Below, in pieces: positions 8,083 to 63,874 of a DNA stretch of 64,000 nt. The position numbers and the translations under genes were made by a program. The DNA is from an archaeon (GTDB lineage: Archaea > Iainarchaeota > Iainarchaeia > Iainarchaeales > JAAZKV01): the NCBI GenBank assembly GCA_041653195.1, contig JBAZFU010000002.1:23639-87638 (forward strand), in the 5' to 3' direction. The notes under the pieces were generated by a model, which saw only the letters and a list, made by a program, of their open reading frames with translations, had not been told where the DNA came from and ran no database searches. Positions within the stretch are counted from its first letter, which is position 1, and every line of letters starts with the position of its first letter.

Positions 8083-8155
8083 TGCGAAGCCTTTTTGCCA
8101 GCCTTTTTATTAAAAAACCAACTCGTTTTTCGCCGGCCTTTTATAAAAAGGCCGA
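8083..8155 (-). repeat. Composite hairpin element copy T1, abutting the 3' end of tRNA-Ile(UAU)
   Basis: The minus strand directly after the tRNA discriminator reads TCGGCCTTTTTATAAAAGGCCG-GCGAAAAAC...AAAAAGGCTG-GCAAAAAGGCTTCGCA. The hairpin is at 8134-8154. The 20-mer 8083-8102 is identical to 573-592. Confidence 0.7.
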
Positions 8156-8229
8156 TGGGCACGGGCGGATTCGAACCGCCGACGCTTAGTGTATAAGACT
8201 AATGCTCTACCAGGCTGAGCTACGCGCCC
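8156..8229 (-). tRNA. tRNA-Ile, anticodon UAU
   Basis: Hand-folded 74-nt cloverleaf: GGGCGCG-TA-GCTC-AGCCTGGTA-GAGC-A-TTAGT-CTTATAC-ACTAA-GCGTC-GGCGG-TTCGAAT-CCGCC-CGTGCCC-A. Anticodon loop is CTTATAC. CCA is not encoded. Confidence 0.85.
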
Positions 8230-8365
8230 AGCTGTCACGTCAGCTGGCAACGTGCCGGCTTGCGCTCTGCTTAGCCGGCTTGCCTCGCTTTGCTCGGCAA
8301 ATCTTAACAAAATTTAGCAAAAAGAGATTTTAAAAGGTTGTTTCTTTGAAAAATCGGGCAGAACT

Positions 8366-12987: not shown

Positions 12988-13638
12988 TTAACTTATTATA
13001 GAAGCAAAAATCAGGGCAAGACTCGCCAACATTAGAACCGCTATCATCATCATCTGGGCACTGTCAAGGGCGTAAAAATTCATGTACAAAAGAGCGGCGC
13101 TGGAAAAAAGAGTTACCGCCCCCAAAATCATCAATATATAAGAAATTAATTTGCCGCCGCGCCTATACTTGTGTATCTTAACCTGCTCCAAATCTATTTC
13201 AAGCTGGGAAAGCCTGTTCTGAATCGAATCAATCGCCATCTTAACCATATTAACGGTTTTCTCCGAAGAACCAATGGTTTTGTCAACACGCCCCTCAAAC
13301 TCCTTTGTTTTATCAATTATGCCTTTCTCAACGTCCCTCAACTCAAATCTCGCAACTTCCGCAACTTTTTCCTTCTCATCCATCTCCGCCTTCGCAATAT
13401 CTCCGTGAATAATCTCCTCAAAATCCTTTCTCTGGGACGCCATCTCATCCTTTACAAGAGAATTTATTTCTTTTTTTAGCAGAGTAAAAGTATCCGCTTC
13501 CGCTATGAGAAGAAGCCTCTTAGCCTGCTCCTCGCTCACACCCAAATCAATGAGTGTTTGAACTATTTTATCCCGCGGCTCGCCGTCACGCACCATCTTC
13601 TGAATAATTTCTATTATCGAATCCTGTTTAGGAGCCAT
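12988..13638 (-). CDS. Coiled-coil protein with two C-terminal transmembrane helices
   Basis: 216 aa. Charged heptad-rich middle region, and a C-terminus LISYILMILGAVTLFSSAALLY...MMMIAVLMLASLALIFASIIS. Confidence 0.55.
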   Translation of the reverse strand: MAPKQDSIIEIIQKMVRDGEPRDKIVQTLIDLGVSEEQAKRLLLIAEADTFTLLKKEINSLVKDEMASQRKDFEEIIHGDIAKAEMDEKEKVAEVARFELRDVEKGIIDKTKEFEGRVDKTIGSSEKTVNMVKMAIDSIQNRLSQLEIDLEQVKIHKYRRGGKLISYILMILGAVTLFSSAALLYMNFYALDSAQMMMIAVLMLASLALIFASIIS

Positions 13639-13783
13639 AAAAAATCACAACCAAAAAACAACCATCATTTTTTCAAAAAACTAAAATAATATTTACCGCT
13701 ATTGCTTTATTTGTTTCCATCCCCTCCAAAAAACTCCCAAACCCCAATAATCCGCGCATTTGCTTTTTCTGTCCGAGTTTAAA

Positions 13784-14509
13784 TTAATTTTCCGGAACGA
13801 TTTTTATCTGCTTACTGGTAGATTTTTCGAAATCTCCAACCTTAACATTAAAATTAATCGTAACGAACCCGGAACTAGTTGGCGTGAGAGTAGTAGTTAT
13901 GGGCTTGCATTCTTTCGGAGAGAGGGAAAAAACATTCGGAAACAACGCTTCCTTAAAATAATTCCCGCTAACCGATTCGGTCCACTCGATTGAAGGCAGT
14001 GCTTCCTCAGAACGATTGCAAATATTTTTCGTCAGCAAATATTCTTGACCAACTACCATCTGCCACTCCGTATTCGCCTGACCGGAAAGAGAAACCTCCG
14101 CCTTAAGAGGATCAACCACCTCAGATTTCAAAGTAAACTCTTCAATTGAAATCGTTTTATTGAAGGGCGCACGCACCTCAACAAAATAAGTCAAATCCGA
14201 AGGAATATCAAGAATCTGCGAAAAATATGCTACCTGTCCCGCATTCAAATCCTCCACGGGAAAAGACTGCGAATTGCCGCTGGTCATAACCACAACAGTT
14301 ATTCCTCTGACAAAATGTTTCGAATAATTTAAAATTTCCATTTTCAATTCGGCTTTGGTTCCCTTAACGCCCATTTCAGGATTTTTTACGCTCAACGCTT
14401 CCTGAAAACTTGCCCAATACACCATTACAAAAAAAATCAGGGCAAAGGCCACGAGAAAAAAAGAATAAACGGTTTTTCTGCTCACCGTCGGCGCCTTCTC
14501 GGATTCCAT
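13784..14509 (-). CDS. Membrane-anchored beta-rich hypothetical protein
   Basis: 241 aa. N-terminal TM VYSFFLVAFALIFFVMVYWASF followed by alternating-pattern beta-sandwich-like sequence. Confidence 0.55.
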   Translation of the reverse strand: MESEKAPTVSRKTVYSFFLVAFALIFFVMVYWASFQEALSVKNPEMGVKGTKAELKMEILNYSKHFVRGITVVVMTSGNSQSFPVEDLNAGQVAYFSQILDIPSDLTYFVEVRAPFNKTISIEEFTLKSEVVDPLKAEVSLSGQANTEWQMVVGQEYLLTKNICNRSEEALPSIEWTESVSGNYFKEALFPNVFSLSPKECKPITTTLTPTSSGFVTINFNVKVGDFEKSTSKQIKIVPEN

Positions 14510-14581: not shown

Positions 14582-15262
14582 TTATTCTATTTCAACAGAG
14601 TAATCGAAAAACTGGGAAATTTTTGAAACAATATAATTACTTCCGAAAAAATAATACGCGTTCACGGAATTTTTTCGCAAAATTTTGGTAATTGAATGAA
14701 TGAACTTGAAAATATTTTCGTCGGAATGGAAAAGCCGAAGAATATCAAGAGAATCGAAAACAAACACTGCTTTGGAATAGGCTTCCACAAGCTCGATAAT
14801 TTTGATTTCAAGCCCCGGCAAATCCGCCAGGGAATCGGCGAAAAAAATATTCTCCTTATCTTTTTCACAAAAAATATTTTTAGTAACGCAGTCAACCAAA
14901 ACAACTTTTTTTGTTTCAATGCCCGCGTTTTCAAGTTCCTGAATCATCACCCTGTAGTTGCGCGCAGTGAGAACCATTACTGGAATTTTTCCGGAAGAAA
15001 TAATTTTTTTTGCAGTAACAATCAGCGTGTCACCCAAAAGTTCCGGACGAGTCTTTATAACCGCCTGAAAACGCGAAGCTTTCCCCGGAAGCTGCTTGTC
15101 AATTTCAAGCGAAATTTTGGACTGGCCCGAAAGCTCGCTCTGAAGCTTTTCAAACTGTTTAAGTTGGGCATCAATTTCCACCGAAATGTTTTTCTGATCA
15201 GATAAAAGCTTCTGAAGCTTTTCAAACTGTTTCGGACCGGCGGAATAATCAACTTCAGGCAT
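14582..15262 (-). CDS. KaiC/RecA-fold-like protein lacking a P-loop, with N-terminal 24-aa tandem repeat
   Basis: Walker-B-like hydrophobic strand ending in Asp (KAVFVFDSLDIL), but I find no GxxxxGK[ST]. The layout parallels 29305..29907. The exact 22-nt repeat tctgaagcttttcaaactgttt occurs at 15139-15160 and 15211-15232 (72-nt period), encoding KQFEKLQ twice. Confidence 0.45.
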   Translation of the reverse strand: MPEVDYSAGPKQFEKLQKLLSDQKNISVEIDAQLKQFEKLQSELSGQSKISLEIDKQLPGKASRFQAVIKTRPELLGDTLIVTAKKIISSGKIPVMVLTARNYRVMIQELENAGIETKKVVLVDCVTKNIFCEKDKENIFFADSLADLPGLEIKIIELVEAYSKAVFVFDSLDILRLFHSDENIFKFIHSITKILRKNSVNAYYFFGSNYIVSKISQFFDYSVEIE

Positions 15263-15391: not shown

Positions 15392-17806
15392 GTGATTAAA
15401 ATGGCTTTATTCCCTGAAAAAAAAAGCGCAAATTCAAGCTCTCTTGACGAACTAAAAAAACTCGCGATGGGAGAAAAAGTCCCATCAAATCTCAAACCGG
15501 TTTCTCCAAAAGAAAATGAAAATCCTTCAGTTGAAAAAACAGCCGGGCCAAGCGCACTCGACAAACTAAAAAAATTTGCAAACCCAGGAAACGATGCGCC
15601 TGAAGAACCCCAAAAATTAATCGAATCAAAAAAATCCGATAATTACAACATAAGCACAAAAACTGATTCGTTTCTCGGCATGGAAGGAAGAAAGGGGCTC
15701 ATCTCACAAGAACCTGAGGACATAAGCTGGCTAAAAGAAAAAAAAGCCGAACAAAATGCCGCTGAAAATATTTCAGAAAGCGACCCTGAATGGATAATAA
15801 AAAGCGACCCGATAGAAGCGCCCCTGGCAACCGACTTTGAAGGATGGGAAGAACAGGCTGAAAACTCCGCGAAAGAAGCTGAAACAATTGAAGAACAAAA
15901 AAATACGGACTCTGCGGACAAACTTTTAAGAAACAAAACTTTCGGCGGTTCCGCAAAAATTGTTTCGGAAAGCGAAGAAAAAAAAACCGAAGAAGAGGCA
16001 AATCTTGACCTCACCGGAGAGAATCCAAGCAACGAAAAAGAACTCCGAGAAAAAATAGAAAAAATAACTACTCCCATTGACACCATGTTCGAATTGCTTA
16101 CCGCATACAAAGAGGTTGATGCTGGAAACCTCGTTGATTATATAGGATTGTCACTCGACAAAATAGAAGAAATTGCGAGGCTATTTGAAAACGACGGAAT
16201 AATAGAAATCAGTTACCCTCCGGGAATACAAAAAAAACCCAGAATAAAATTAAAAAAAGAAATAAATTCAAGACTAAAAGAACTTCCAAAAGGAAAATTA
16301 GTCGAATCTTACGACCTTGTAGTAGATTACATCCCCGCAAAAATTTCAATAATAGCGGAGCCGGGAGAAGTCAGACCAAAATACTGCCTCGAACTGCCCG
16401 CAATCGGAAAATACACAAAACAATTCCTTGAATACGTGAAAGGAGAAGTCGCCGAAAGCACGCCGATAGAACTGGAAGACATACTTGACCAGGCGAAAGC
16501 AAAAGATTTGAAGAAAAAATACTTCACGCAAGTAAATAAGCATCTACTAAAATATTTTCCAAACACTCCCGAAGAAATGCTGCGCCCGCTTGGGGGAGTT
16601 GTGCTTCATGAAATGTACGGACTCGGCGACCTCGATATTCTAATGGGAGATCCGATGCTTGAAGAATTGGCAATCAACTCTTCAAAGACCCCTGTAACAA
16701 TTTACCACATAGTGCACGGCTGGCTAAAAACAAATATTCAAATACAATCCGAAGAAGAAGTCGTGAATTATTCCGCGCAAATCGGAAGAAAAATCGGAAG
16801 AGAAATAAGCATACTAAACCCAATACTTGATGCGCACCTTACCTCGGGAGACCGTGTAAACGCAACACTCTTCCCCGTTTCAGCAGAAGGAAACACCCTC
16901 ACAATAAGAAGATTTGCGAGAAGACCGTGGACAATGGTTGATTTCATCGGGAAAAGCCATTCGATGAACACGGAGATGGCGGCATTGCTGTGGCTCGCAA
17001 TACAATACGAAATGAACGTGCTGGTGGCGGGAGGAACCGCAAGCGGAAAAACTTCCACGCTAAACGGACTGCTCGCACTAACCCCCGCTTATCACAGATT
17101 AATTTCAATTGAAGATGTAAGAGAACTAATACTTCCGAGTTATTTGAAATGGAACTGGGTTCCGCTTGTGACAAGACCACAGAACCCAGAAGGACTTGGA
17201 GAAGTAAAAATGCTCGACCTAATGGTAACAAGTTTGAGAATGCGACCGGATCGAATAATCGTCGGAGAAATAAGAAGGCATGAAGAGGCGGAAGTGCTCA
17301 TGGAAGCAATCGAAACCGGCCACAGCATTTACTCCACAATGCACGCAAACTCGGCATACCAGGTGCTAAGAAGATTAGCCGAACCGCCGGTAAGTATTCC
17401 GGCAGTACAAATAGAACTCATAGATTTGATACTTGTACAATACAGGGACAGAAAAACAAACAAGAGAAGAACCTACGAGATAGCGGAAATAGAACCTGCT
17501 GCAACCGGAGAAGGACTGCAGGTAAACACGATTTACAAATGGATTCCGAGAATGGACGAATGGGAACAACTAAACAAACCGGTAAAACTTTTAACACTGC
17601 TAAATCTTCACACCGGAATGACAGAAGGCGAAATTTACGAAGAACTTGAAAACAGAAAAATAATTCTCGAATGGATGAGGAATAACAAAATTGATTCAGT
17701 TGAATCAATAGGAAAAGTAATGAAATTATTTTATTCGGACCCTGAAAGGGTTAAAAAACTGGCGAAAAAAAACGCGACCATAGAAGAAGCATACAAAGTC
17801 GAATAA
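15392..17806 (+). CDS. Type IV filament assembly ATPase (ArlI/FlaI/PilB, T2SS-E family) with ~270-aa acidic N-terminal extension
   Basis: Walker A VLVAGGTASGKTSTLNGLL, Walker B/Asp box RPDRIIVGEIRRHEEAEVL and His box ETGHSIYSTMHANSA. The N-terminal third is Glu/Lys/Ser-rich low complexity, followed by a wHTH-like segment (LVDYIGLSLDKIEEIARLFENDGIIEISYP). GTG at 15392, first ATG at 15401. Confidence 0.9.
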   Translation: MIKMALFPEKKSANSSSLDELKKLAMGEKVPSNLKPVSPKENENPSVEKTAGPSALDKLKKFANPGNDAPEEPQKLIESKKSDNYNISTKTDSFLGMEGRKGLISQEPEDISWLKEKKAEQNAAENISESDPEWIIKSDPIEAPLATDFEGWEEQAENSAKEAETIEEQKNTDSADKLLRNKTFGGSAKIVSESEEKKTEEEANLDLTGENPSNEKELREKIEKITTPIDTMFELLTAYKEVDAGNLVDYIGLSLDKIEEIARLFENDGIIEISYPPGIQKKPRIKLKKEINSRLKELPKGKLVESYDLVVDYIPAKISIIAEPGEVRPKYCLELPAIGKYTKQFLEYVKGEVAESTPIELEDILDQAKAKDLKKKYFTQVNKHLLKYFPNTPEEMLRPLGGVVLHEMYGLGDLDILMGDPMLEELAINSSKTPVTIYHIVHGWLKTNIQIQSEEEVVNYSAQIGRKIGREISILNPILDAHLTSGDRVNATLFPVSAEGNTLTIRRFARRPWTMVDFIGKSHSMNTEMAALLWLAIQYEMNVLVAGGTASGKTSTLNGLLALTPAYHRLISIEDVRELILPSYLKWNWVPLVTRPQNPEGLGEVKMLDLMVTSLRMRPDRIIVGEIRRHEEAEVLMEAIETGHSIYSTMHANSAYQVLRRLAEPPVSIPAVQIELIDLILVQYRDRKTNKRRTYEIAEIEPAATGEGLQVNTIYKWIPRMDEWEQLNKPVKLLTLLNLHTGMTEGEIYEELENRKIILEWMRNNKIDSVESIGKVMKLFYSDPERVKKLAKKNATIEEAYKVE

Positions 17807-19928: not shown

Positions 19929-20417
19929 GTGATGGTTTTGATTCAAGAAAAGAATGCACAAGGCACAATAGAATACCTGATAGTTCTCGCAATAATCGTA
20001 GTAATAGGCCTGATAGTAGTAACACTTTTACTTCAATTTACAGATGCCGGAAGGGGACTACGACAAAACGACTCGGAAATAAAATGGAGAAGCGCGACAC
20101 CTTTTGCAATAGTTAACCATGTTCAAAGCGACCGCAATCTGACAGTGGTTCTGAAAAACAATACCGCCTCGTCAATAAACTTCGTGAAACTCTGCGTCGG
20201 CGGAAACAATGTTGACTGCAACTCGGAAGCACGCCTGAACGTGGCACCAAACGCGACAATAAACGTAATAGTGCGCGACCTCAATTATACCGCTGCATGT
20301 ACCGGCGGCGCATCATACAGTTTCGCAAAAGCCGGAATATTCATAGACTACAATAATTCTGACATAGCATCACACACTCAGCCCGGAGCGGCAGACCTAA
20401 TAGGAACCTGCACATAA
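19929..20417 (+). CDS. Archaeal type IV pilin (class III signal peptide); candidate major pilin
   Basis: N-terminus MMVLIQEKNA|QGTIEYLIVLAIIVVIGLIVVTLLLQF: short basic leader, A|Q junction, Glu at +5, then ~20 hydrophobic residues. The 162-aa size fits a structural pilin. GTG at 19929, ATG at 19932. Confidence 0.8.
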   Translation: MMVLIQEKNAQGTIEYLIVLAIIVVIGLIVVTLLLQFTDAGRGLRQNDSEIKWRSATPFAIVNHVQSDRNLTVVLKNNTASSINFVKLCVGGNNVDCNSEARLNVAPNATINVIVRDLNYTAACTGGASYSFAKAGIFIDYNNSDIASHTQPGAADLIGTCT

Positions 20418-20477
20418 AAAAACTAAACTATTTTGCTAATTAATTCTGCCGAAGTTTCAAAAACAAGTCTGATTCCA

Positions 20478-21335
20478 TTAGCCGGAAATTTTTATTAAAC
20501 TGTTTGAATCAAATCCGTTTCCGGAATAAGCCAAAATAGAATCAAAAAAAATTGGAAGATTATTTGGATAAGAAGACGGGGAATAGGAAGCGAAAATCGA
20601 ATAATTAAAACTGCGAAGCGAATTCGCATTAATATCTACTGAAGAATTAACTCCTCCGATTTGCCCAACAATAATGTACGCGTTTTCATCTCCCTGATAA
20701 ACTATTGCAAGTTTGTTAAGAACACTTGAATTAACCGAAGTTGAAACGGAAAAAGAATTCACATCATCCGTATAATTTATTCTAACAGGAATTGTTCCTG
20801 AAGGGCCAGAAACGGGATTCACCCACTCAAATCGGTTAAGGTCCGAAGCAGAGGCATCAATATTAATATCCAAAGAATTTAGCGACGCCCCGTTCTTCGG
20901 ATAAATTATCGCACTACTATTCGAATAATCAAAGTCATAACTCAAAATGCTTCCCACTGAAAGTTCGGCCTTACCATCTGCCAGCGAAGAAAGGTCTATT
21001 GACTTTACCCCCGAAGTTCTTTCAAAAAAAGTCCGATAAAGGAAAGAATTGTAATCCACAATAGCGGTAGAAACGCCAAAGCCGCGCGGAACCACGCCCG
21101 AAACAAGCAAATTCAAATCCGAATTATAATCCGTCCTAATTGCAAACCCTAAAATTTTTTGCAAATCCGTTCCGATATCGTCGTTCAAAAAAGGCTGATT
21201 GATGAGCTTTGAAGAAAAAATTATTCCCTGCTCGCGAAAAGAATTATTATTCACATATTGCTGCGAATAAAAAACAAGGGTTGAAACAAAAAGAATTACA
21301 GAAATTGTAAACAAATAACCGCGCGAAGACATCAC
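20478..21335 (-). CDS. Pilin-like protein (minor-pilin candidate, no +5 Glu)
   Basis: N-terminus MMSSRG|YLFTISVILFVSTLVFYSQ, followed by Asn/Ser-rich beta-type sequence. It is the last gene of the pilin operon and overlaps the upstream gene by 4 nt. Confidence 0.6.
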   Translation of the reverse strand: MMSSRGYLFTISVILFVSTLVFYSQQYVNNNSFREQGIIFSSKLINQPFLNDDIGTDLQKILGFAIRTDYNSDLNLLVSGVVPRGFGVSTAIVDYNSFLYRTFFERTSGVKSIDLSSLADGKAELSVGSILSYDFDYSNSSAIIYPKNGASLNSLDINIDASASDLNRFEWVNPVSGPSGTIPVRINYTDDVNSFSVSTSVNSSVLNKLAIVYQGDENAYIIVGQIGGVNSSVDINANSLRSFNYSIFASYSPSSYPNNLPIFFDSILAYSGNGFDSNSLIKISG

Positions 21336-21757
21336 TTAGTCCACCCCGAAACCCTTGCAATCAAAAAGTTTGCATCAGCACCATCAACCAGCACAAAAGA
21401 TCTTTCCACGACAACCAGGTTTGAAAAATTTTTTTGACAACCCGCTTTAAGCGCATGAACCAGCGGAACATCAAGATTTTCATCATTAAAAACAGCAACG
21501 TCAAAACAATACGCGAAAGGAGAATTATTAAGCGAAGAAAGAATCAAATCGGATGAGCGCTGCTTAACCGAATTTTCAAGAGCGCCGGATTTTTCAAGAA
21601 CAATCGCTTCATCCATTGAGAGCTGCTTAAGGTCAACAGAATTCCAAGCCGCTACAGAAATTTGTGAAAGATAAAAAAAAGCCATCAAAATCAAAAGCAT
21701 TGAAAGCGTAAGACTCAGGAATGCATCAAGCGAAATCAAAAAGCCGTCACTTCGCAT
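21332..21757 (-). CDS. Pilin-like protein (minor-pilin candidate)
   Basis: N-terminus MRSDG|FLISLDAFLSLTLSMLLILMAFFYLSQ (Gly junction, Asp at +6). It overlaps both neighbouring genes (11 nt and 4 nt). Confidence 0.6.
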   Translation of the reverse strand: MRSDGFLISLDAFLSLTLSMLLILMAFFYLSQISVAAWNSVDLKQLSMDEAIVLEKSGALENSVKQRSSDLILSSLNNSPFAYCFDVAVFNDENLDVPLVHALKAGCQKNFSNLVVVERSFVLVDGADANFLIARVSGWTK

Positions 21758-22295
21758 AAGAAAACACGCCCCTCAAAACAGATTGCCTGCCACCGTAATA
21801 CACCACGCGTTCATAAATCAAAGTATAATCCGCATTTTCATTAATAAAACCGGCTTCGTTAAAATAATCTCCGTTCGAATCAACCATGCTTAACTGAAAA
21901 TCATACCTTGCAATTCCAAGCTTTTCCTTTGCCAAAGAATAATCGGGACCATTCAAATATCCCGCCAACTTTTCAAACTTTCGCGAATCAACAACCCCCT
22001 TAGAAGAAACAATCCCAAAAATATTTACATCAGTTATGCTTCCGTATTCCCAATTCGAAGGTTCGCCCGATGAACCGAGCAAAACACTCATTACAGGATG
22101 CGCAAACTCTTCCACATTTTTTTTAACATCCAAATCGGCAGTTTGAAAAAAAATTTGCTGCGAAGCCGCGAAAAAAAATACCAACCCCATAATAAAAACG
22201 GCAGAAGCAAGCATCAAGTCCGGAAAAAAAAACTGGCCGCGCTCATTCGAAAAGAAACTCTTTGAAAAAAACTTTTTTCGCAAAAACTTTTTCAT
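21747..22295 (-). CDS. Pilin-like protein (minor-pilin candidate)
   Basis: N-terminus ...SNERG|QFFFPDLMLASAVFIMGLVFFFAAS: RG|Q junction, acidic residue at +6, hydrophobic helix. Confidence 0.6.
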   Translation of the reverse strand: MKKFLRKKFFSKSFFSNERGQFFFPDLMLASAVFIMGLVFFFAASQQIFFQTADLDVKKNVEEFAHPVMSVLLGSSGEPSNWEYGSITDVNIFGIVSSKGVVDSRKFEKLAGYLNGPDYSLAKEKLGIARYDFQLSMVDSNGDYFNEAGFINENADYTLIYERVVYYGGRQSVLRGVFSYAK

Positions 22296-22336
22296 AACAA
22301 TGCCTCAAAAAAATAAACAAAAAATTCAAAATATTA

Positions 22337-24430
22337 TCAGCCTGACTGATCCACCTTCCACATAAACATATCATAGCTTCCGGCAGAGGCAAGACTTGCC
22401 GCATCAAAAGCAACTGTTGACGAGAAGGTTCCGCAAATATAAGATTCGTTTTGCGAATCAATTGCTATCCCCATTCCAAAATCAAATCCTGCCCCCCCGG
22501 TGTTCTCGACACGAAGCCAGTTTCCATTAGGGTCAATGCTTGCAAGGAAAGCATCACGAACACTGCTTACTACAAAACTTGTTGTCCCAAAATAAGCCGT
22601 TCCAAGAACATACCCCGTCAAATACGCATTGCCATCTGTTCCAATCGCAATATCACTCGCACCCTCAAAATTAGAACCATTAACCGTATCGCTGCCCGCC
22701 TGCTTCGCCCACAACCAACTTCCGAGCGAATCAAGCTTCACGACAAATATTTCGCTGTTCCCAGAAACATTCAAATCAATGTTACCAAAAAAAGCGTCGC
22801 CGTCAAAACGACCCGCAACATAAACATTATGCGAAGAATCAGCAGCTACGCCATAACCATAAGTATGAACTTCCTGATCCGGTACGCCAGCATTCTTCGC
22901 CCACAACCAGTTCCCATCAGAACCAATTTTAGCAACAAACATATCAAAATAATTTCCAATAGCATTTCTATCAAGAACAGTGCTTCCAAATGTTGCAGTC
23001 GCACTTCTAAAATAACCGGTTACAAAAATGTTTCCATTAGATTCAACAAAAATATCTTTTCCATAATCATAGCTTGTACCGCCGGCTTTGTTAACCCAAA
23101 CCCAATTCCCGTCAGGATTAATTTTGCCGACAAAAATTTCATCCACTCCAGAAGTTGTCAAAGCAATCGCATCAAAAGAAATTGTTGTCCTGTAATAACC
23201 TGTAACATAAGCATTATCATCGGAACCAACAGTTATTCCATACCCTGAATCAATTGAAGTGCTTCCGACCATAACCGCCCAAAGCCAATTTCCATCAGTA
23301 TCAAGTTTTGCAACAAAAATATCCGGACCGGCGCTTATTGAATTCAAATTAAAATTTCCAAAAGAAGCGTTGCCCTGAAACTGTCCTGTAATGTAAACAT
23401 TCCCTTCAGAATCAACCGCAACACTTTGCCCAGCGTCATAATATGACGTAACTGCAGAATCGCTTCCTGCCCTCTTCGCCCACAACCAGTTCCCGTCCGG
23501 ACCGGCTTTTGCAACAACAATATCCGCATAACCGTTACACTCAAGCGAAATGCTTCCAAAATTTGCGTTACCCAAAATGTAACCCGTTACATAAGAATTG
23601 CCCGCAGAATCAACCGCAACGCCCGTTGAATAATCTGCGGCTGTGCCCCCCGCTTTGTTAGCGAAATAAACCGGAAGCGAATAAGTCAAAGTTCTCGGAG
23701 AACCGCTTGAACCCTCATTGCCGTACTCGTCCGTGCAATTAACATCCCACACATAGGTTCCGGCGGAAGTGAACGAATAATTCGCAAATTCAGCGAAAGG
23801 CGCGGAATCCGCAGAAACCTTCGAAACCGCGTTAATTATTAATTCACAACTTTCAATAGAAGAATCATCCGTAACAGTATAAGAAAAATCTACAACCCCG
23901 TCCGAATCGGTTGTACCGTTTTCCGGCAAACCAAGGTATATTACCGGCGGAGTCGTATCTTCTTCAGGCGGAACGGGCTCTTCCTCTTCCGGAACTTCTG
24001 AAGAATAATTTACAACAACTTTATCCCCGCTTTTTGTGAAAAAAATTTCGCCGTTCAAATCCCCGACAAAAAAATCAACATTCTTCGGAATTATCGGCGC
24101 GTCAACAAAACTATTCGCATTAAACCAAACAATCACACTGCCCGAACCGCTTTCAACATAGTAACCCTGCGCGGCGTAATAAAAAGAATCACTGAAAGAA
24201 ATATTTCCATCAGACAAATAAACCGCGTTTATATTGCGGGCGAGCCTGAAAGCGGTTTCCTGCGCCCCGCCTTGCGCAGCATAATCAGTGTTTATCTGCG
24301 ACCTGCTCTGAAAAATCATTAATCCGAAAAGAAAAACCAGCGAAATTATTACGGCAGACATTATGAACTCAATACTTATTTGCCCCGCACTTGAAAAAAA
24401 ATATTTTCGAAAAAATTTTTTCAACACCAT
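22337..24430 (-). CDS. Large pilin-like adhesin: class III signal peptide + pilin core + Ig-like segment + ~7-blade SBBP-type beta-propeller
   Basis: N-terminus ...FFSSAG|QISIEFIMSAVIISLVFLFGLMIF. The C-terminal two thirds contain ~7 repeats of the pattern DGNWLWAK.AG(G/S)....G..(V/I)A.D..GN.Y(V/I)TG.F......FG (for example PDGNWLWAKRAGSDS, TDGNWLWAVMVGSTS, PDGNWVWVNKAGGTS, SDGNWLWAKNAGVPD, SLGSWLWAKQAGSDT, PNGNWLRVENTGGAG). Confidence 0.8.
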   Translation of the reverse strand: MVLKKFFRKYFFSSAGQISIEFIMSAVIISLVFLFGLMIFQSRSQINTDYAAQGGAQETAFRLARNINAVYLSDGNISFSDSFYYAAQGYYVESGSGSVIVWFNANSFVDAPIIPKNVDFFVGDLNGEIFFTKSGDKVVVNYSSEVPEEEEPVPPEEDTTPPVIYLGLPENGTTDSDGVVDFSYTVTDDSSIESCELIINAVSKVSADSAPFAEFANYSFTSAGTYVWDVNCTDEYGNEGSSGSPRTLTYSLPVYFANKAGGTAADYSTGVAVDSAGNSYVTGYILGNANFGSISLECNGYADIVVAKAGPDGNWLWAKRAGSDSAVTSYYDAGQSVAVDSEGNVYITGQFQGNASFGNFNLNSISAGPDIFVAKLDTDGNWLWAVMVGSTSIDSGYGITVGSDDNAYVTGYYRTTISFDAIALTTSGVDEIFVGKINPDGNWVWVNKAGGTSYDYGKDIFVESNGNIFVTGYFRSATATFGSTVLDRNAIGNYFDMFVAKIGSDGNWLWAKNAGVPDQEVHTYGYGVAADSSHNVYVAGRFDGDAFFGNIDLNVSGNSEIFVVKLDSLGSWLWAKQAGSDTVNGSNFEGASDIAIGTDGNAYLTGYVLGTAYFGTTSFVVSSVRDAFLASIDPNGNWLRVENTGGAGFDFGMGIAIDSQNESYICGTFSSTVAFDAASLASAGSYDMFMWKVDQSG

Positions 24431-25488
24431 CAGCTAACCACCATCGATAAATTAGCCCTCGCAGTAAAACCTGAAGAACTCACTACAAGAAACCCCGAAT
24501 ATGCGCCCGGTGGAATAGAAGGATTTATTCTCAATAAAAGCTCTTCACAGGAACCGGAAGCTATTACGCCGGAAAATGTGACTGCCGAATAAGCTGCTAT
24601 GTTTCCGGAAACAATTGAATCCGAAGAAGAAAAATTCGTTGAAGAATTATTGCACACCAAAAATGATTCGCCTGAAGAAGTCGATTCAATTAGTTTCACA
24701 CTGGGGGAAATTACAAGTTCCTGCCCGGAAGAAACGCAAACCAAATCAATTGGCAGGCTCGTGTTCTCATCGCCTGAAAAAATAAGTTCTCCGGAATAGG
24801 CGCCGCTCGCATTCGAATCACATGAAAGCGAAATAGTAAAATCTGCTGATTCATCAATATCAAAAATCTTTTCTCCCGAAGGCGAAACTATTGCCGACGC
24901 ATCAGGATGCAAAAACTCCGTCGAAATCACATAAGGCACTTGAGCGCCGGAAATATTCTCTGCAGAAATAACCACTTCTTTTGAGGAACTTGAGGAAACT
25001 ATTTCTGCAATCCTATGCTGGGACAAAGAAAGCTTTGACGGAGAAATTGAAACGAAACCATCATAAACAGTTATAACAAACTGGTGAAGCCCCGTGTCAT
25101 CCGGCCATGAACCCCTGACCTCGACATTTGTTGTCCCGATAATATCGGAACCCGCAACATTTAACACAATCGTTTTACCGATGAACTCCGATTTGTTAAA
25201 GTCATAAGATTCCGGCAATTGCAAAATAAGTTTTTTTACAGTACCGGGACCGAGAAAATACGCATCATCAATTTCCCGCGAAAGAGATTCAATAAGATTT
25301 TTTCCTGATTGCTGCTGCAACAAAATTTGCGAACCCGAATAGGAATCCCAAATAAGAGCTGTAAAAATAAGCAAACCTGCCATTGCAGCCGCCAGAATCA
25401 TCATTGATTCAATGGAAGCCTGCGCACCCGAACCGCGACAACGCTTATTTCCCAAAAAATTTTTTCTGCAAACCAAAAAACACACCAA
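24430..25488 (-). CDS. Pilin-like protein: class III signal peptide + pilin core + beta-sandwich repeats
   Basis: N-terminus ...CRGSGA|QASIESMMILAAAMAGLLIFTALIW. The pilin core is alignable with those of the 697- and 1211-aa proteins (..IGKTIVLNVAGSDIIGTTNVEVRGSW versus ISGRTVLLKLAGGDALGTADVNILGSW). It shares a one-nucleotide overlap with the downstream gene. Confidence 0.75.
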   Translation of the reverse strand: MVCFLVCRKNFLGNKRCRGSGAQASIESMMILAAAMAGLLIFTALIWDSYSGSQILLQQQSGKNLIESLSREIDDAYFLGPGTVKKLILQLPESYDFNKSEFIGKTIVLNVAGSDIIGTTNVEVRGSWPDDTGLHQFVITVYDGFVSISPSKLSLSQHRIAEIVSSSSSKEVVISAENISGAQVPYVISTEFLHPDASAIVSPSGEKIFDIDESADFTISLSCDSNASGAYSGELIFSGDENTSLPIDLVCVSSGQELVISPSVKLIESTSSGESFLVCNNSSTNFSSSDSIVSGNIAAYSAVTFSGVIASGSCEELLLRINPSIPPGAYSGFLVVSSSGFTARANLSMVVS

Positions 25489-25563
25489 ATCAAGAAAACG
25501 ACAACCAAAATATAAGGGTTTTCCGGTTTAAAATTGTTTTCAGAAGAAAAACTGCAAAAAAAA

Positions 25564-28500
25564 TTAAGAAGAAACGACCGAAACATTAACATCTTTTAGA
25601 AACGCCCCTATCCAAAAAGTGCCCGCAGTATAACCTTCAAAAGTCGATAGCGGTCTGAAAAAAACGTCAAAGCCAAGATAGCGGGAATTACTTAATGAAC
25701 TAATATCAATACTCGAATTATTTTCTGCACCCGAAATATACTGATTACTTGTCTTCGTGCTACAAGCAGAATCGCTGCAGGAATAAACATTCAAATCCAA
25801 GCGAGAAGCGCCTTGACGGTACAAATCCATAACCTGCCGCTGATTCATGGCATAATTTGCCGCAAACATATTCTCAATTTTTCCGTCAAATTTCGCAGTA
25901 CCATTCTGCCCATAAAGCGTACGCTCTTCAGTCCTCTTGCCGATATAAGTTCCAATGCCCACATCATAATATATCAAGCCCGTGCCAACTGCACCTGTCC
26001 CGACAAGAAGCCCGTTAGAATAAATATTCACAGTCCCCTGATTCCTCACAACAACCACCTGTGTCCACTTATTTACATCAACAGCACCGGGCGCAGATGT
26101 CTTAACCACATTATCCATTATTCCTCCCGCGCCGAAAGTAATTATTCCTGCCGGAGTAATCCAAATCGCATAACCACCGTCCGTGCCCGCAATTTCATAT
26201 TTGTTATCAATAAGGCCATGCTCGCGCGCAGAAGTCGGATAAACCCACGCGCCAATCGTCAAATCTTTTCTAAAATTTATTCCCTGATTTAATTCAACAT
26301 GATCCCTGTTTTCAGCATCAAAACTATACGCTTGCGTACCCCATAGCCCGGTTGTTAACATAGCACCGCCCGCGCTACCATCATTGCCACCAACAGCACT
26401 ATCTTCCGCGTCTCCGTTGAAATGCCAAACAGAAACCAAATCCGGTTCATTTCCAACCAATTCTGCACCCTCACCAAAATTGTATCTTTCAGAAACTTCC
26501 GCCGCCGACAAAGCTTTGCCCCAAACCGCAACCTCTTCCAAAACACCGTTAAAATCCGCCTGTCCCCCTTGAGAGTAATCGGCACGCGCAGTCTTCCTGT
26601 GCCCGATGAATCTTCCTGAATCAAGCAATCTGGCCACAGTATCATAGTATAGAGTTCCCGCGCCAACAACTGCACTTGAATTTAAAACTCCGTTCACATA
26701 AAAATTAACATCCTTGCCGCCCCGCACAACCGCAATGTGAGACCACTCATTCAAATTAAAAGAATTCGAAGGAGAAGAAACAACCACATTGCTTAATATT
26801 CCGCCCGCGCCGAAAGTAATATTATTATCTGCAGAAAGCCAAACCGCGTAACCCCCGTCAGTTCCTTCTATCTCATAATAATTATCAAAAATTGAGTGTG
26901 TCCTCGCACTAATCGGATAAATCCAAGCCTCAATCGTCAGGTTATTTACATCAAGAGTATTGTTTACAGGAGCACTTAATTCCAAATATGAATTTATATC
27001 AGCACCAGCGTTAAAACTCGCGGCATTGGTGCTCCACAAACCAGTTTCATACGTTGTTGTACCAACCCAACTGCAATCATTGACTCCGTTCAAACTTGAA
27101 TCATTAACATCATTATTCATGCGCCAAAGAGCCACAGGATTCCCGCCCCAAGCAGCACTATCCCGCTTCAATTCATCCCCAAAATTGTAATCAAAATCTT
27201 TATTGATTTTTATCGCATTCCAATCAACATCCGCACCGGCATCAATAATATTTTCACTCACAAAATTTGAATTGACCCACTGATTATAATCTGCCAACAC
27301 TTCGGACGCGGACAATGCACGATCCCAAATTTTCACTTCATCAATATCCCCGCTAAAAAAATAAAGATTTCCCGCTGTCCACAATTGCTTACCCATGGTA
27401 AGCGGCTGGGCAGACTGGTCAAAACTGTTCACGACACCGGCATTCGTATCTGCAACATCACTCCTAACCCCGTTCACATAAATTGCCATTCCCGAACTCT
27501 TGAAAGTTCCATCCCACACCGCAACAACATGATTCCACTTTCCGGCGCTAATCGGGTTTACAGCAGTTTTTCTTGAAATATATACGCTTGTGGAACTGTC
27601 AAATAAATAAAATTGCAAAGTAGTGTCCGTAAAAAATCTGAAAAAAAATCCGTCTCTGTTAGCGGTTGTTGCGTTATTGCCGTCAAGGTTCGAAATTATT
27701 ACATCGCCCGTTGTTAGAGAATCCATGTTTACCCAAGCGCTTACTGTGAAACCGCCCGCCATGTTGTCATCAATAGTATTATTCAACTGAACAAAATCAG
27801 CTGTCCCGTTGAAACTATAAGAATTCGCGTCCCACAAACCCTGCGCAACAATTGGACTACTTACTGCTCCGCTGTTGCCCCTGCCGGAAAAATCAAAAGC
27901 ATCGCCATTAAACTTGTAATATGCAACAAGATTCGCATCACGCCATCTGTTTGAATCAGCAACTGAATTCAAATTCCAGTCCAACTCGCCCGTAGTGGCA
28001 ATCGATTTATCCGCAAACTTCTGAACCCAATTGGCAAAGTCATAATCCTGATTCAAATCAGAGAGATAAAAAGTAAGAGGCGTTTCCGAAACTGGCGGCT
28101 CGCTCTCACTAACCTCAATCGAAATCGATGCGGCCCCTGAATTTTTATCAGAATAAAGCGCAATAAAATTAGCGTCGTAGGTGCCTGCAGAAACTTCCGA
28201 CGGAACAGTCACCGAAACACTCACATCTAAACATTCAAAAGGACCAATGTTACTTATCGCAGTAAGCGAAAGCCAGGGCGCGGCATTCGCATCCGCACTG
28301 CCATCAACAGCCCAAGAAATTCCGCTTATCTCCGAACCATTATTGCTGCACAAAGCATACTGCGAAGAAACCGCGCTTCCGCCCGATTCCGCCGAAACGC
28401 TTTTTGCAGGCGGAAGAAGCGACAAAGAACTTGAGCTGGAAAAAATCTCTGCGGAAACAAAAACTTGTTTTGAAAAATTTTGGTCGGAAATTTCGCCAAC

Positions 28501-29199
28501 CACATCAACGATTCCTGAATAGTTTCCGAAAGCACTCTGTTCAATATCAAAATTCATCGAAACTTCTTTCATTCCTTGCGCAGGAACCGAAAAAAAGTCG
28601 TCGCCAGCATCAAGAGAAAGAGCAACCCCTGAACGATAAAAATTCGGAATGACCCAAAAAGTCGCTTCAGAATCAGAATTATTTCTCACAACAAATTTTT
28701 TTGAAATCGTGCGCCCTGCAGGAGAAGAAAAATAAATCGATTCGCTACTAATTTCAAAATCCCTGTAACTCAGCCGAACTGCATTCCCGTCATAATACAA
28801 GTAAGCATAATAAACATAGGAACCCTGCTTCCACGAACCCAAAATATTAACATCCGCAGTACCGAGCGCGTCACCGCCCGCAAGTTTCAACAAAACCGTG
28901 CGCCCGCTTATATTGCTATCAAGAAGATTTGCAGAAACAGGCACCTCTATCAAAATTTTTGTTTCCGAACCGATGCCCGAAGAATAAACCTCGTTGGCAG
29001 CATTCACAATTCTTTGAACAGTAGAATTTGCAGTATACACGTCCCTGAAATTTGTTGCCGAATTTATTTGAGAAGCATAAAAAACATAAATAAGCACAAT
29101 AACAATTGCGGCCGCACTCAAAACCATTGACAACTCGATAACCGCCTGCGCCCTATTCTCGTTCAACAAAGCCAAAAACCCGCCATTCAACGAATACAT
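25564..29199 (-). CDS. Giant pilin-like adhesin: class III signal peptide + pilin core + beta-sandwich repeats + three LamG/concanavalin-like lectin modules
   Basis: N-terminus ...LLNENRA|QAVIELSMVLSAAAIVIVLIYVFYASQ. There are three modules with the LamG_3-type pattern (L(V/A).(Y/W).(F/M)NGDA.D.S..GN.G...GLW...A..F......(V/L).L....TI.AW(V/I)...W.H(V/I)(A/V)VV......(I/F)YVNG...(L/I)(D/E)EV.(I/V)W..ALSA.EV). Modules 2 and 3 are close internal duplicates. Confidence 0.8.
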   Translation of the reverse strand: MYSLNGGFLALLNENRAQAVIELSMVLSAAAIVIVLIYVFYASQINSATNFRDVYTANSTVQRIVNAANEVYSSGIGSETKILIEVPVSANLLDSNISGRTVLLKLAGGDALGTADVNILGSWKQGSYVYYAYLYYDGNAVRLSYRDFEISSESIYFSSPAGRTISKKFVVRNNSDSEATFWVIPNFYRSGVALSLDAGDDFFSVPAQGMKEVSMNFDIEQSAFGNYSGIVDVVGEISDQNFSKQVFVSAEIFSSSSSLSLLPPAKSVSAESGGSAVSSQYALCSNNGSEISGISWAVDGSADANAAPWLSLTAISNIGPFECLDVSVSVTVPSEVSAGTYDANFIALYSDKNSGAASISIEVSESEPPVSETPLTFYLSDLNQDYDFANWVQKFADKSIATTGELDWNLNSVADSNRWRDANLVAYYKFNGDAFDFSGRGNSGAVSSPIVAQGLWDANSYSFNGTADFVQLNNTIDDNMAGGFTVSAWVNMDSLTTGDVIISNLDGNNATTANRDGFFFRFFTDTTLQFYLFDSSTSVYISRKTAVNPISAGKWNHVVAVWDGTFKSSGMAIYVNGVRSDVADTNAGVVNSFDQSAQPLTMGKQLWTAGNLYFFSGDIDEVKIWDRALSASEVLADYNQWVNSNFVSENIIDAGADVDWNAIKINKDFDYNFGDELKRDSAAWGGNPVALWRMNNDVNDSSLNGVNDCSWVGTTTYETGLWSTNAASFNAGADINSYLELSAPVNNTLDVNNLTIEAWIYPISARTHSIFDNYYEIEGTDGGYAVWLSADNNITFGAGGILSNVVVSSPSNSFNLNEWSHIAVVRGGKDVNFYVNGVLNSSAVVGAGTLYYDTVARLLDSGRFIGHRKTARADYSQGGQADFNGVLEEVAVWGKALSAAEVSERYNFGEGAELVGNEPDLVSVWHFNGDAEDSAVGGNDGSAGGAMLTTGLWGTQAYSFDAENRDHVELNQGINFRKDLTIGAWVYPTSAREHGLIDNKYEIAGTDGGYAIWITPAGIITFGAGGIMDNVVKTSAPGAVDVNKWTQVVVVRNQGTVNIYSNGLLVGTGAVGTGLIYYDVGIGTYIGKRTEERTLYGQNGTAKFDGKIENMFAANYAMNQRQVMDLYRQGASRLDLNVYSCSDSACSTKTSNQYISGAENNSSIDISSLSNSRYLGFDVFFRPLSTFEGYTAGTFWIGAFLKDVNVSVVSS

Positions 29200-29304: not shown

Positions 29305-29907
29305 ATGCAAAATCTCGCTTTCCTAAAACCAATGCTGGCAGAAGCCGAGGAAAGAACAGCACTGGTAGAATTAAACAAAGACCAGTTAAAAGACGCCATG
29401 AAAACAATAGTAACACATTATGAAAAGAACCGAAGAAAAAAAGGAATAATAATTTCACTAAGCGCACCGATAGAACAAATTACCGAAGAAGACGATTTTT
29501 CAATGCTCGACAAGGAACAACTCATACTAATCGACATGTGCTCCGGAAAAAAAGGAAAAGCAACTGTAAACGGATTCAAAACATTCTTTATAGAAACGCC
29601 ATCAGACTTGACAAGTTTGAGAATAATACTCGAAAATCTCCTGCAAAAAAACGAAAACGAAAAAAATGAAAAAAAATTTGTTTTATTCGACTCTATAAGC
29701 GCGCTTTCAACATACGTCGAAAGAAAGGTTCTCGACAAGTTCATGTATTACTTAAACAACAAAATAAGTTTCGAAGGCGATACCGGAATATTTCTTTCAA
29801 TAAAAAATCCGAAAGTAGACGAAGATATTGAAATAATAAAACAATTCTGCTCCAAATTTTACGACTTTTCGGGCGTTGTTACAATGGAAGTAGAAAAAGC
29901 CGAATAA
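29305..29907 (+). CDS. KaiC/RecA-fold-like protein lacking a P-loop (paralogue of 14582..15262)
   Basis: 200 aa. The Walker-B-like strand KKFVLFDSISALSTYV and the overall strand/helix order resemble the core of the neighbouring KaiC-like ATPase. I find no GxxxxGK[ST] motif. Confidence 0.45.
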   Translation: MQNLAFLKPMLAEAEERTALVELNKDQLKDAMKTIVTHYEKNRRKKGIIISLSAPIEQITEEDDFSMLDKEQLILIDMCSGKKGKATVNGFKTFFIETPSDLTSLRIILENLLQKNENEKNEKKFVLFDSISALSTYVERKVLDKFMYYLNNKISFEGDTGIFLSIKNPKVDEDIEIIKQFCSKFYDFSGVVTMEVEKAE

Positions 29908-63774: not shown

Positions 63775-63801
63775 ATCTCTCACACCAATATTTTTGCCCA
63801 T

Positions 63802-63873: not shown

Positions 63874-63874
63874 T

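Follow-up and report, generated by a model that had tools for sequence, protein, structure and literature searches.

The stretch of DNA analysed here (the window, 64 kb) is part of contig JBAZFU010000002.1 and derives from the metagenome-assembled genome (MAG) of an uncultured DPANN archaeon, a tiny organism of the Iainarchaeota/Diapherotrites. Seven of its genes are the subject of this study. Their products, named p162, p1211, p352, p697, p182, p141 and p285 by their lengths in amino acids (aa), all begin with what look like class III (prepilin-type) signal peptides. Since these pilin-like genes adjoin those of an ATPase of FlaI/TadA-like type, of two TadC-like platform proteins and of several KaiC-like proteins, they form, to judge from the sequence, the filament-subunit part of a Tad/Epd-like locus for a type IV pilus (T4P), in which the platform is split between two genes. 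As argued below, the locus probably encodes a pilus displaying adhesive modules, and these modules would be borne by the pilins themselves.

Organization of the locus

Six of the genes (p1211, p352, p697, p182, p141 and p285, in this order) are arranged head-to-tail on the minus strand, from 29199 down to 20478; at three of their five junctions (p352/p697, p182/p141 and p141/p285) the stop codon of one gene overlaps the start codon of the next. To collect related loci, the p352 alignment was used to scan genomes of GTDB and metagenomes of JGI, and the sequences obtained were subjected to open reading frame (ORF) calling and blastp. Eighteen loci were obtained in this way, and the gene order is fixed in about 12 distinct ones: KaiC, p200, A, B, C, p182, p141, p285, convergent p162 (one or two copies), TadC, TadC and ATPase. 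In this notation, A, B and C are the positions occupied by proteins resembling p1211, p352 and the N-terminus of p697, respectively. The features of the window are collected in Table 1.

p352, p162 and p182 have few homologues, every one of them annotated as 'hypothetical', and those with a named source come from Candidatus Diapherotrites/Iainarchaeum or from unclassified archaeal MAGs. Public gene calls drop the class III signal peptides (p352, p182; locus L001), as with the NCBI version of p182, which has 147 aa (WC308_01170). The pilin nature of these proteins is thus hidden in 'hypothetical' annotations because the gene calls cut off the signal peptide.

Table 1. Features of the pilus locus in the window. 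A slash in a junction marks the predicted cleavage site; family junctions are those of the orthologues in syntenic loci.
Feature	Coordinates	Strand	Description	Junction in the window	Junction in the family
p226	14582..15262	-	DUF7504 (KaiC-like), distant paralogue of p200, upstream of the ATPase; Pfam DUF7504 E=5e-7, passes cut-off		
Secretion/assembly ATPase, 804 aa	15392..17806	+	FlaI/TadA/VirB11-type T2SSE domain in C-terminal half; charged N-terminal extension of ~360 aa		
Platform protein 1, 297 aa	17851..18744	+	TadB/TadC-like, ~5 transmembrane (TM) segments; Pfam T2SSF E=6e-15; syntenic in all related loci		
Platform protein 2, 347 aa	18766..19809	+	TadC-like, ~5 TM segments; Pfam T2SSF E=3e-15; syntenic		
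p162, 162 aa	19929..20417	+	Candidate major pilin; hydrophobic helix, immunoglobulin (Ig)-like beta-sandwich head	...KNA/QGTIEYL	[KR][AG]/QGT[IV]EYL; next ~20 residues almost invariant
p285	20478..21335	-	Minor-pilin-like, last operon gene; no acidic residue near N-terminus; start overlaps end of p141	RG/YLFTISV	[KR][GA]/[FY][LF]FT; no acidic residue
p141	21332..21757	-	Minor-pilin-like; invariant G5, D11, F13, C84 and C107 (Cys pair); overlaps p182 and p285	DG/FLISLDAF	[KRD]G/[FL]xx[ST]xD[AS]F; D+6 invariant
p182	21747..22295	-	Minor-pilin-like; alignment invariant at G20, Q21, F22, F23, P25 and D26	RG/QFFFPDL	[KR]G/QFF[SF]PD; Q+1, P+5 and D+6 invariant
p697, C-terminal graft	22337..23995	-	Acidic/Pro-rich linker, weak Ig-like match (Big_7, E=0.037), SBBP beta-propeller (Pfam E=1e-22, 5 repeats)		
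p697, N-terminal pilin module, aa 1 to ~145	23996..24430	-	Family C; orthologues align to aa 4-145 only	AG/QISIEFI	[GA]/Q[IVA]S[IML]EF
p352	24430..25488	-	Bare 'carrier B' pilin; 60-residue helix, beta-sheet head, two Ig-like domains	GA/QASIESM	x[AGC]/Q[AST][STV][IV]E[TSN]
p1211, C-terminal graft	25564..28104	-	Three Laminin_G_3 (concanavalin A (ConA)-like lectin/glucanase) domains and flanks; Pfam E=1.5e-65, 3 stretches		
p1211, N-terminal 'carrier A' module, aa 1 to ~365	28105..29199	-	Paralogue of p352	RA/QAVIELS	[KR][GA]/Q[TA]T[IV]ELL
p200	29305..29907	+	Degenerate KaiC/FlaH-like; weak KaiC, DUF7504 and FlaH matches; syntenic in all loci		
KaiC-family ATPase, 363 aa	29921..31012	-	Pfam KaiC E=1.4e-57; syntenic, 62-73% identity		

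Prepilin-type N-termini

The seven N-termini of Table 1 had been quoted in a first-pass annotation of the same DNA, and all of them are reproduced exactly in the list of ORFs. The leaders have 5-22 residues. Position -1 is Gly or Ala in all seven proteins, and position -2 is Lys or Arg in three of them (p1211, p182 and p285) and in most orthologues. A hydrophobic stretch had been reported after each junction; indeed, an uncharged run extends to between +18 and +26 in every case. The motif [G/A]/Q-x-x-I-E, attributed to four of the proteins, is also found as described: p162, p1211, p352 and p697 have Gln at +1 and Glu at +5, and these residues are kept in the orthologues. The last three proteins, p182, p141 and p285, lack Glu at +5 as had been stated, with the refinement that an Asp is invariant at +6 in p182 and p141.

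The junction pattern cannot be ascribed to chance, because [GA]-Q-x3-E with 14 or more hydrophobic or small residues behind it occurs only four times in a six-frame translation of the whole 64 kb, always at a quoted N-terminus, and because the junction of each family is conserved in 10-13 orthologues from syntenic loci. Since these orthologues are overall only 30-45% identical, the junctions are under selection. A home-made regular expression resembling FlaFind, the check that had been proposed, caught four of the seven proteins and also four unrelated ORFs of the window. It was therefore dropped as a statistic, and the specific Q...E count and the conservation in orthologues were used instead. 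Conserved junctions and the presence of T4P genes (ATPase and two T2SSF proteins) thus support the view that all seven N-termini look like class III signal peptides.

The comparison with bacterial type IV pilins made at first reading deserves a correction. The Gln+1/Glu+5 feature is real, but it is already published as the signature of DUF361 pilins, the EppA substrates of archaea. In Methanococcus and relatives, DUF361/PF04021 pilins have leaders of 5-13 residues ending in Gly, with Gln at +1 and Glu at +5, and are processed by a dedicated peptidase, EppA (PMC3875500). EppA no longer processed a substrate in which both the +1 Gln and the +3 residue were altered, from which the authors infer that the +1 Gln is essential (PMC4390842). 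In Pfam and NCBIfam scans of the seven proteins, no bacterial prepilin N-terminal model (N-methylation motif, IPR012902) was matched; the junction is of the archaeal DUF361 type. PF04021 itself was not matched by p352, p1211 or p697 (Pfam, E<=0.1). The Gln+1/Glu+5 signature is therefore already known, as is the general type of the locus.

A carrier pilin shared by p1211 and p352

Sequence comparisons make p352 and p1211 true paralogues. Aligned as whole proteins by blastp, they match over 266 aa with E=6e-11, and when the A and B families are compared by hhalign downstream of the helix, a probability of 99.3% is obtained (E=3.4e-20, 120 columns). The motif G.T[IV].L..AG.D..GT..V...GSW is found exactly in both, at aa 104 of p352 and at aa 99 of p1211. 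The similarity spans about 345 aa, that is, the pilin helix, the beta-sheet head and two Ig-like domains. Bare A orthologues of 343-372 aa align to aa 16-363 of p1211. This carrier matches no Pfam or NCBIfam model.

An AlphaFold2 model of p352, made with an 8-sequence alignment, has a mean predicted local distance difference test (pLDDT) score of 80.8. It contains a helix at residues 20-79, strands at 84-155 and beta-sandwiches at 160-252 and 258-351. A phmmer search of PDB sequences with p352 gave chance-level matches only. The start of p352 is uncertain. In public gene calls the protein has either 341 aa from Leu12 (JGI) or 317 aa from Met36 (Logan), in which case the signal peptide is lost, and the true start is probably Leu12, at 25455. 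The exact 352-aa sequence has no match in public protein calls because these choose other starts; an exact match was found for p697.

The first laminin-G module of p1211 (aa 459-640; 27280-27825) matches the NCBIfam model of TafC, with E=3.6e-13, under its cut-off. Kinship between p1211 and TafC was considered and set aside, the match reflecting the shared laminin-G module only. It seems that one kind of binding module has been placed on subunit-like carriers in two archaeal filament systems that are otherwise unrelated.

Lectin arrays on either carrier

The N-terminal type of the large proteins always tracks the position of the gene, and their lengths vary widely: 343-2055 aa at position A of related loci (1211 aa in the window) and 344-2287 aa at position B (352 aa in the window). 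The variation lies in C-terminal extensions, which contain one to seven Laminin_G_3 domains each according to Pfam. Arrays homologous to the C-terminus of p1211 are found on carrier A in the window, L003, L014 and L016, and on carrier B in L008 (the best match, 301 bits), L015, L003, L006, L005, L007, L016 and L012. At least one lectin array is present in every locus where A and B are intact, except L004, in which both carriers are bare.

The size of the carrier family was assessed by searching a hidden Markov model built from the carrier alignment against 1.84 billion representatives of 50%-identity clusters. The search returned 1733 of them at E<=1e-3; 550 remain at a limit of E<=1e-10, and 159 at E<=1e-30. 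Almost without exception, the best 150 have the carrier module at the extreme N-terminus, for total lengths of 134-3095 aa. The pattern [KR][AG]/QxxxE, more narrowly [KR][AG]/Q-x-[ST]-[IV]-E, occurs in 125 of the 144 top matches, the remainder being shortened gene calls or Ig-repeat matches. In these 125 junctions of the A/B family, position -1 is always Ala or Gly (125/125) and position -2 is Lys or Arg in 104. Laminin_G_3 is carried by 23 of 47 long members; other members have SBBP, WD40 or FG-GAP propellers, MG2, DUF285, Big_7, GH130 or a glycine-rich domain.

p1211, with its carrier and three Laminin_G_3 domains, is built as a modular pilin in the sense of Raynaud et al. (2021), and so is p697, with a C-type module and an SBBP propeller; module-free carriers exist in other genomes. 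By their N-termini, however, these proteins fall outside the bacterial family of modular pilins. The literature searched describes neither the archaeal carrier family of about 345 aa nor lectin arrays that move from one paralogous carrier pilin to the other in DPANN genomes.

A rearranged and simpler locus was also observed in Woesearchaeota (L009, 4865-13302), with a p182-like gene, two TadC genes, a p200-like gene and an ATPase apparently split into two ORFs. Its B-like pilin has 141 aa and an ADEVYFLGPG motif but is devoid of Ig domains. Another DPANN lineage therefore has the pilin head of the carrier but not its Ig stalk.

p697 as a pilin with an acquired module

A core of about 100 residues had been proposed to be common to the 352-, 697- and 1211-aa proteins. 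The proposal holds for p352 and p1211, whose families are significantly related in the profile-profile comparison; it fails for p697, whose family is related to neither in this way. In p697 the core motif is matched at best with seven substitutions, at a site within the propeller, and a shuffled sequence does equally well. Compared with the A or the B family downstream of the helix, the C family reaches 3-4% probability in hhalign. Against a 123-sequence A/B profile, 30% is obtained (P=5e-4); the 29 aligned columns keep the register and correspond to the amphipathic second half of the long helix only (A..v..L..AaNdVY versus A..riArNINnVYL). A core shared with p697 is thus ruled out in three ways, save for this helix segment of about 29 residues, and p697 would at best be a very distant relative of A and B. 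For the other pairs of families, hhalign shows nothing outside the helix.

At position C of related loci the protein has 130-198 aa and stands alone. The p697 graft is absent from 11 orthologues and is found at this position in this genome only. Because the C protein stands alone in every other genome, p697 may be regarded as a pilin that gained a module. The graft reaches E=5e-45 on the NCBIfam model of SBBP-propeller lipoproteins, under its cut-off, and one C-family orthologue scores 20.3 bits on PF04021, also under the cut-off. The first-pass view of the giant proteins as pilins, and not as unrelated proteins with an anchor, is nevertheless upheld and strengthened by separate routes: p1211 is paralogous to p352 over about 345 aa, and p697 is orthologous to a small, stand-alone, pilin-like protein.

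p162, the candidate major pilin

p162 is the best candidate for the major pilin because it is small, is the most conserved of the seven proteins, is sometimes duplicated and adjoins the machinery genes. Its junction is invariant in 13 orthologues and also fits the Flp motif G/xxxxEY (Glu+5, Tyr+6). Three of four orthologues tested score 26.6-29.2 bits on PF04021, over the cut-off of 23.7. The AlphaFold2 model of p162 (pLDDT 82.3) has a helix at residues 13-54, then a beta-sandwich. The best PDB matches of the model are archaeal type IV pilins. The top two in Foldseek are the Aap pilin of S. acidocaldarius (8q30, E=6e-4) and a P. calidifontis pilin (8fk7, E=2e-3), with TM-scores kept low by the helix orientation, and the next-ranked are an S. 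islandicus pilin and FlaF. In a profile search of PDB sequences the Aap pilin also comes first, with E=0.011.

Tandem duplicates of p162 occur in L003 (17077-18092) and L005 (14525-15558), with identical mature N-termini and diverged heads; the leaders differ slightly in L003. The family has an invariant VLKNN, which continues as an N-x-T/S sequon (LKNNT in seven of eight sequences), as well as a conserved Cys in the head and a C-terminal GTC[ST] in most members. Sequon density is highest in p162 among the seven proteins, at 3.7 per 100 aa. The conserved sequon and the Cys pair suggest that the p162 family may be N-glycosylated and disulfide-bonded.

The small minor-pilin-like proteins

Three operon genes, those of p182, p141 and p285, encode small proteins devoid of Glu+5. 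The p182 homologues (n=55) are all 'hypothetical' and come from Diapherotrites or unclassified archaea. DUF7287 was considered for p182, two of 11 orthologues matching just under the cut-off, and adds no functional information. For p141, matches of PDB chains of 325-476 aa to the family profile at E~0.02 (6ixy is labelled 'pilin', the others 'probable surface protein') cover about 50 residues only and were not counted as evidence. No relative of p285 was found in Pfam, NCBIfam or the PDB; its junction, here [KR]G/[FY][LF]FT, is conserved in more than ten orthologues (10+). These three proteins had been likened to GspK-type minor pilins. The absence of Glu5 holds and is conserved in orthologues, but the likeness is an analogy, and two of the three keep an Asp at +6.

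Assembly machinery and flanking genes

The ATPase matches Pfam T2SSE with E=2e-31, and the FlaI-like and TadA-family models of NCBIfam with E=8.5e-77 and E=1.6e-49, both under the equivalog cut-offs. Its orthologues in syntenic loci are 55-76% identical. The N-terminal extension (15392-16470) is rich in Lys, Glu and Ser, has no domain match and varies in length, orthologues having 738-918 aa. The split of the platform into two genes resembles Tad/Epd-type systems.

The pilus locus is bracketed by three KaiC-family proteins, one intact and two short and degenerate, all kept in syntenic loci; the position of p226 is filled by p200-like ORFs in L005, L006 and L007. This arrangement suggests that the three proteins are a dedicated regulatory or FlaH-like accessory set, the 363-aa member being probably a regulator. 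KaiC-like ATPases are reported to be associated with archaeal T4P loci (PMC4858521).

Upstream of p226 (12988-14509), a 216-aa ORF with two TM segments and a 241-aa ORF with an N-terminal TM segment and a weak CARDB-like match may or may not be part of the locus. Elsewhere in the window, lipoprotein-like N-termini are seen in the ORFs at 45827-47308 (...LLFALLFGCTQ...) and 62736-63449 (...VFLLLGCTQ...), the second continuing into an Asn/Thr-rich region of low complexity. A tRNA-Ile with anticodon TAT (UAU) is predicted at 8154-8230, besides a tRNA-Ile(GAT) at 63801-63875. A UAU isoleucine tRNA is unusual in archaea, where a modified CAU anticodon is normal.

Proposed mechanism and alternatives

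On balance, the locus probably encodes an adhesin-displaying T4P, in which p162 would be the major pilin and the six-gene operon would supply a minor-pilin complex showing the adhesive modules. Cleavage, polymerisation, location at the tip and ligand binding are inferred from four precedents, namely the clade 1 model, the system 1 survey, the PilA-PilB-PilC complex of S. sanguinis and haloarchaeal TafC, which are compared with the locus in the last section. The seven proteins would be synthesised as precursors with class III signal peptides and would enter the membrane through the hydrophobic helix at their N-terminus. Their cleavage after Gly or Ala would fall to a prepilin peptidase whose gene lies elsewhere, leaving Gln at +1 on five of them and Phe or Tyr on two. 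The ATPase and the split TadC-like platform would then polymerise p162, with its Flp-like QGTIEY and Ig-like head, into the shaft. The six minor pilins would prime assembly and sit at the distal end; three of them are small and devoid of Glu+5 (p182, p141 and p285), and three are the Gln+1/Glu+5 carriers A, B and C (p1211, p352 and p697). Carriers A and B combine a pilin helix, a head and a two-Ig stalk, to which ConA-like lectin arrays or propellers may be grafted C-terminally; carrier C would have gained its beta-propeller in this genome. At the adhesive end of the pilus, by analogy, the lectin and propeller modules would attach to a surface or to a partner cell by binding its glycans or different ligands there. 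Their evolution would proceed by gain, loss and exchange between carriers.

Several observations weigh against this mechanism. A search through the multi-TM ORFs, both in the window and in the flanks of related loci, revealed nothing that resembles an A24 prepilin peptidase. These ORFs encode MarC, an Na/Ca exchanger, a permease that is probably of the ABC type (judged from its position only), the TadC proteins and some unassigned membrane proteins that are not conserved between loci. The peptidase gene may lie elsewhere in the genome. Gln at +1 in five of the putative substrates and Phe or Tyr in two imply either one peptidase of broad specificity or two enzymes, and p697 and p352 do not have the usual Lys or Arg at -2. 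p162 itself scores 17.4 bits on PF04021 (Class_IIIsignal), under the gathering threshold of 23.7, and its candidacy as major pilin comes from conservation, duplication and position, not from abundance. When the full p352 model was compared with the PDB by Foldseek, only Ig-type matches were obtained (HYDIN/ASH, CEP192 and RbmA), the Ig domains dominating so that the pilin head was left uncompared. The family profiles of p182, p141 and p285 gave nothing credible against PDB sequences, and the tip position of the minor pilins is deduced by analogy.

Some of these observations would suit cell-anchored adhesins. The large proteins, and perhaps the small ones, would then stay in the membrane, uncleaved or unpolymerised, beside a pilus made of p162 only. 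Single N-terminal TM segments look like bitopic anchors too, the lack of a peptidase gene in the window and in related loci and of a basic -2 residue in p697 and p352 would be explained, and C-terminal modules of up to about 1900 aa are hard to fit into the body of a filament. However, Gln+1 with a Glu+5 buried in a membrane helix, kept in 125 of 144 family representatives, is not expected of a simple anchor, and a continuous 60-residue helix packed with a beta-sheet is the design of a pilin. Moreover, the strict operonic linkage and translational coupling with pilin-like genes beside T4P machinery is seen in all genomes, and the conservation of module-free carriers of 343-372 aa makes sense for structural subunits. 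Such anchoring is thus unlikely. Accidental clustering of seven unrelated secreted proteins, similar only in the composition of their hydrophobic leaders, can be considered as effectively refuted: although five of the seven families have no detectable mutual similarity outside the helix and the crude FlaFind-like expression also catches unrelated ORFs of the window, the junctions are kept position by position in every family across genomes that are 30-45% identical overall, the Q...E pattern is found nowhere else in the window, the gene order is fixed beside T4P machinery in about 12 loci and PF04021 is matched over threshold by p162 orthologues.

It may also be imagined that the locus makes no long adhesive pilus but a short, envelope-embedded, bindosome-like structure or pseudopilus, holding lectin-type proteins for the capture of carbohydrates or nutrients. 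The model for this is the bindosome of Sulfolobus, in which the proteins that bind sugars are made with class III signal peptides. DPANN archaea have a reduced metabolism and live by scavenging, the grafts are mostly ConA-like lectin/glucanase domains, with GH130 in one family member, and the ATPase does match the BasE model (E=2e-43, far under its cut-off). Yet the same ATPase scores far better on FlaI- and TadA-type models, and no ABC-transporter or solute-binding-protein genes occur in the conserved locus. A dedicated and highly conserved small pilin, sometimes duplicated and with an archaeal-pilin-like fold, is what a real filament would need, while the split TadB/C-type platform and the Flp-like EY junction indicate pili of the Tad/Epd type. 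Capture of nutrients by such a structure therefore appears quite improbable, and an adhesin-displaying pilus is retained as the preferred reading.

Significance for DPANN archaea

How DPANN archaea and other ultra-small episymbionts attach to surfaces or partners is largely obscure. In their bacterial counterparts, the Saccharibacteria, type IV pili are reported to drive host association (PMC9894109). The present locus supplies concrete and conserved candidates for such a function: a putative major pilin, six genes for minor pilins, and modules of lectin or propeller type that differ in carrier and copy number between related genomes. It is tempting to speculate that the carrier with swappable cassettes is a device of DPANN archaea for recognizing partners or hosts, in which the binding modules of a pilus-tip complex would pass between the two paralogous carriers and now and then to a third, diversifying among close relatives in the manner of phage receptor-binding proteins and setting which glycans are bound, for instance those of host S-layer glycoproteins; this idea is tentative and, at present, rather doubtful. 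If it were true, the representatives of 50%-identity clusters (at least 550 at E<=1e-10) would form a large unannotated class of archaeal modular pilins and would offer a handle for predicting DPANN-host pairings.

Independently of this idea, profiles for the carrier and for three small families are a gain for annotation. A pilin fused to binding modules for a sticky tip is a known design, little described in archaea. The strategy of modular pilins known from bacteria would thus be present in archaea as well, on a conserved carrier missed by domain libraries. Current understanding of type IV filaments is not overturned by these observations.

Comparison with known systems

The Epd/DUF361 pili of Methanococcus maripaludis share with the present locus a short leader ending in Gly or Ala, Gln+1 and Glu+5, several minor pilins per operon, two platform genes and the occurrence of large beside small pilin-like proteins. 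The major Epd pilin, however, has about 70 residues and no head, whereas p162 has an Ig-like head, and the host is a methanogen rather than a DPANN archaeon. No further ORF with a Q...E class III pattern, such as a head-less major pilin of about 70 aa (arCOG06620-like), was found in the window. The Epd operon includes the gene of EppA, of which a search of this window revealed no counterpart, and Phe or Tyr at +1 in two of the proteins would misfit a strictly Gln-specific peptidase.

The locus also resembles clade 1 of archaeal T4P as defined by Makarova, Koonin and Albers in 2016, which has two TadC genes, at least five minor pilins and two large ConA-like (DUF2341) proteins proposed to be tip adhesins (PMC4858521). 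According to a survey of 2026, a 'system 1' is found in methanogens and some DPANN archaea, with DPANN variants of subsystem 4A (bioRxiv 10.64898/2026.04.22.720090), and 'dark-matter' pilins of DPANN archaea have been noted (PMC6393860). Like these systems, the present locus has an ATPase with two TadC-like genes, six minor-pilin-like genes, two positions with ConA-superfamily proteins (A and B with Laminin_G_3) and a link with KaiC. It differs in that the large proteins would themselves be pilins, on a carrier of about 345 aa, and in that MinD/FleN and EppA are absent from the locus and DUF2341 is not matched.

Bacterial Tad/Flp pili also have a split TadB/TadC-type platform and a TadA-like ATPase, and the p162 junction fits the G/xxxxEY motif of Flp pilins as given in PMC3875500. 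Flp pilins have about 50-70 residues and no head, whereas mature p162 would have 152 aa and an Ig-like head like crenarchaeal pilins; no Flp-family model was matched by p162 (Pfam scan, E<=0.1). In the minor-pilin complexes GspH-I-J-K of the type II secretion system and FimU-PilVWX with PilY1 of type IVa pili, co-encoded pilins of low abundance are thought to prime or cap the filament, GspK has no Glu5 and a large tip adhesin is present. Here, three members rather than one are devoid of Glu+5, two of them with a conserved Asp+6, and the adhesin would be fused to pilins instead of being a separate PilY1-like protein. These bacterial complexes have no sequence similarity to the present set.

Two further systems illustrate how a binding module may be placed on a filament subunit. 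TafC of haloarchaeal Tat-fimbriae combines a subunit-like domain with a laminin-G-like domain and is modelled as the first, tip-located subunit (PMC11821415). These fimbriae use the Tat pathway and donor-strand exchange, with neither class III signal peptides nor T4P machinery, and the likeness of TafC to p1211 is limited to the LamG module. In S. sanguinis, the modular pilin PilB is a pilin with a von Willebrand factor A (vWA) domain, PilC is a pilin with an Ig-like domain and a ConA-like lectin, and both belong to the PilA-B-C tip complex (PMC8179133, PMC9934059). PilC and p1211 share a class III signal peptide, a pilin module, Ig-like domain(s) and a ConA-like lectin, and in both systems two modular pilins come with small partners, the principle of a binding module grafted onto a pilin, presumably to be shown at the tip, being common to them. 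Since no sequence homology links the two proteins, their resemblance looks convergent. The S. sanguinis pilins carry the IPR012902 motif, and the published survey of modular pilins covers bacteria only; in the archaeal loci described here, by contrast, the lectin arrays come in one to seven copies and move between paralogous carriers.

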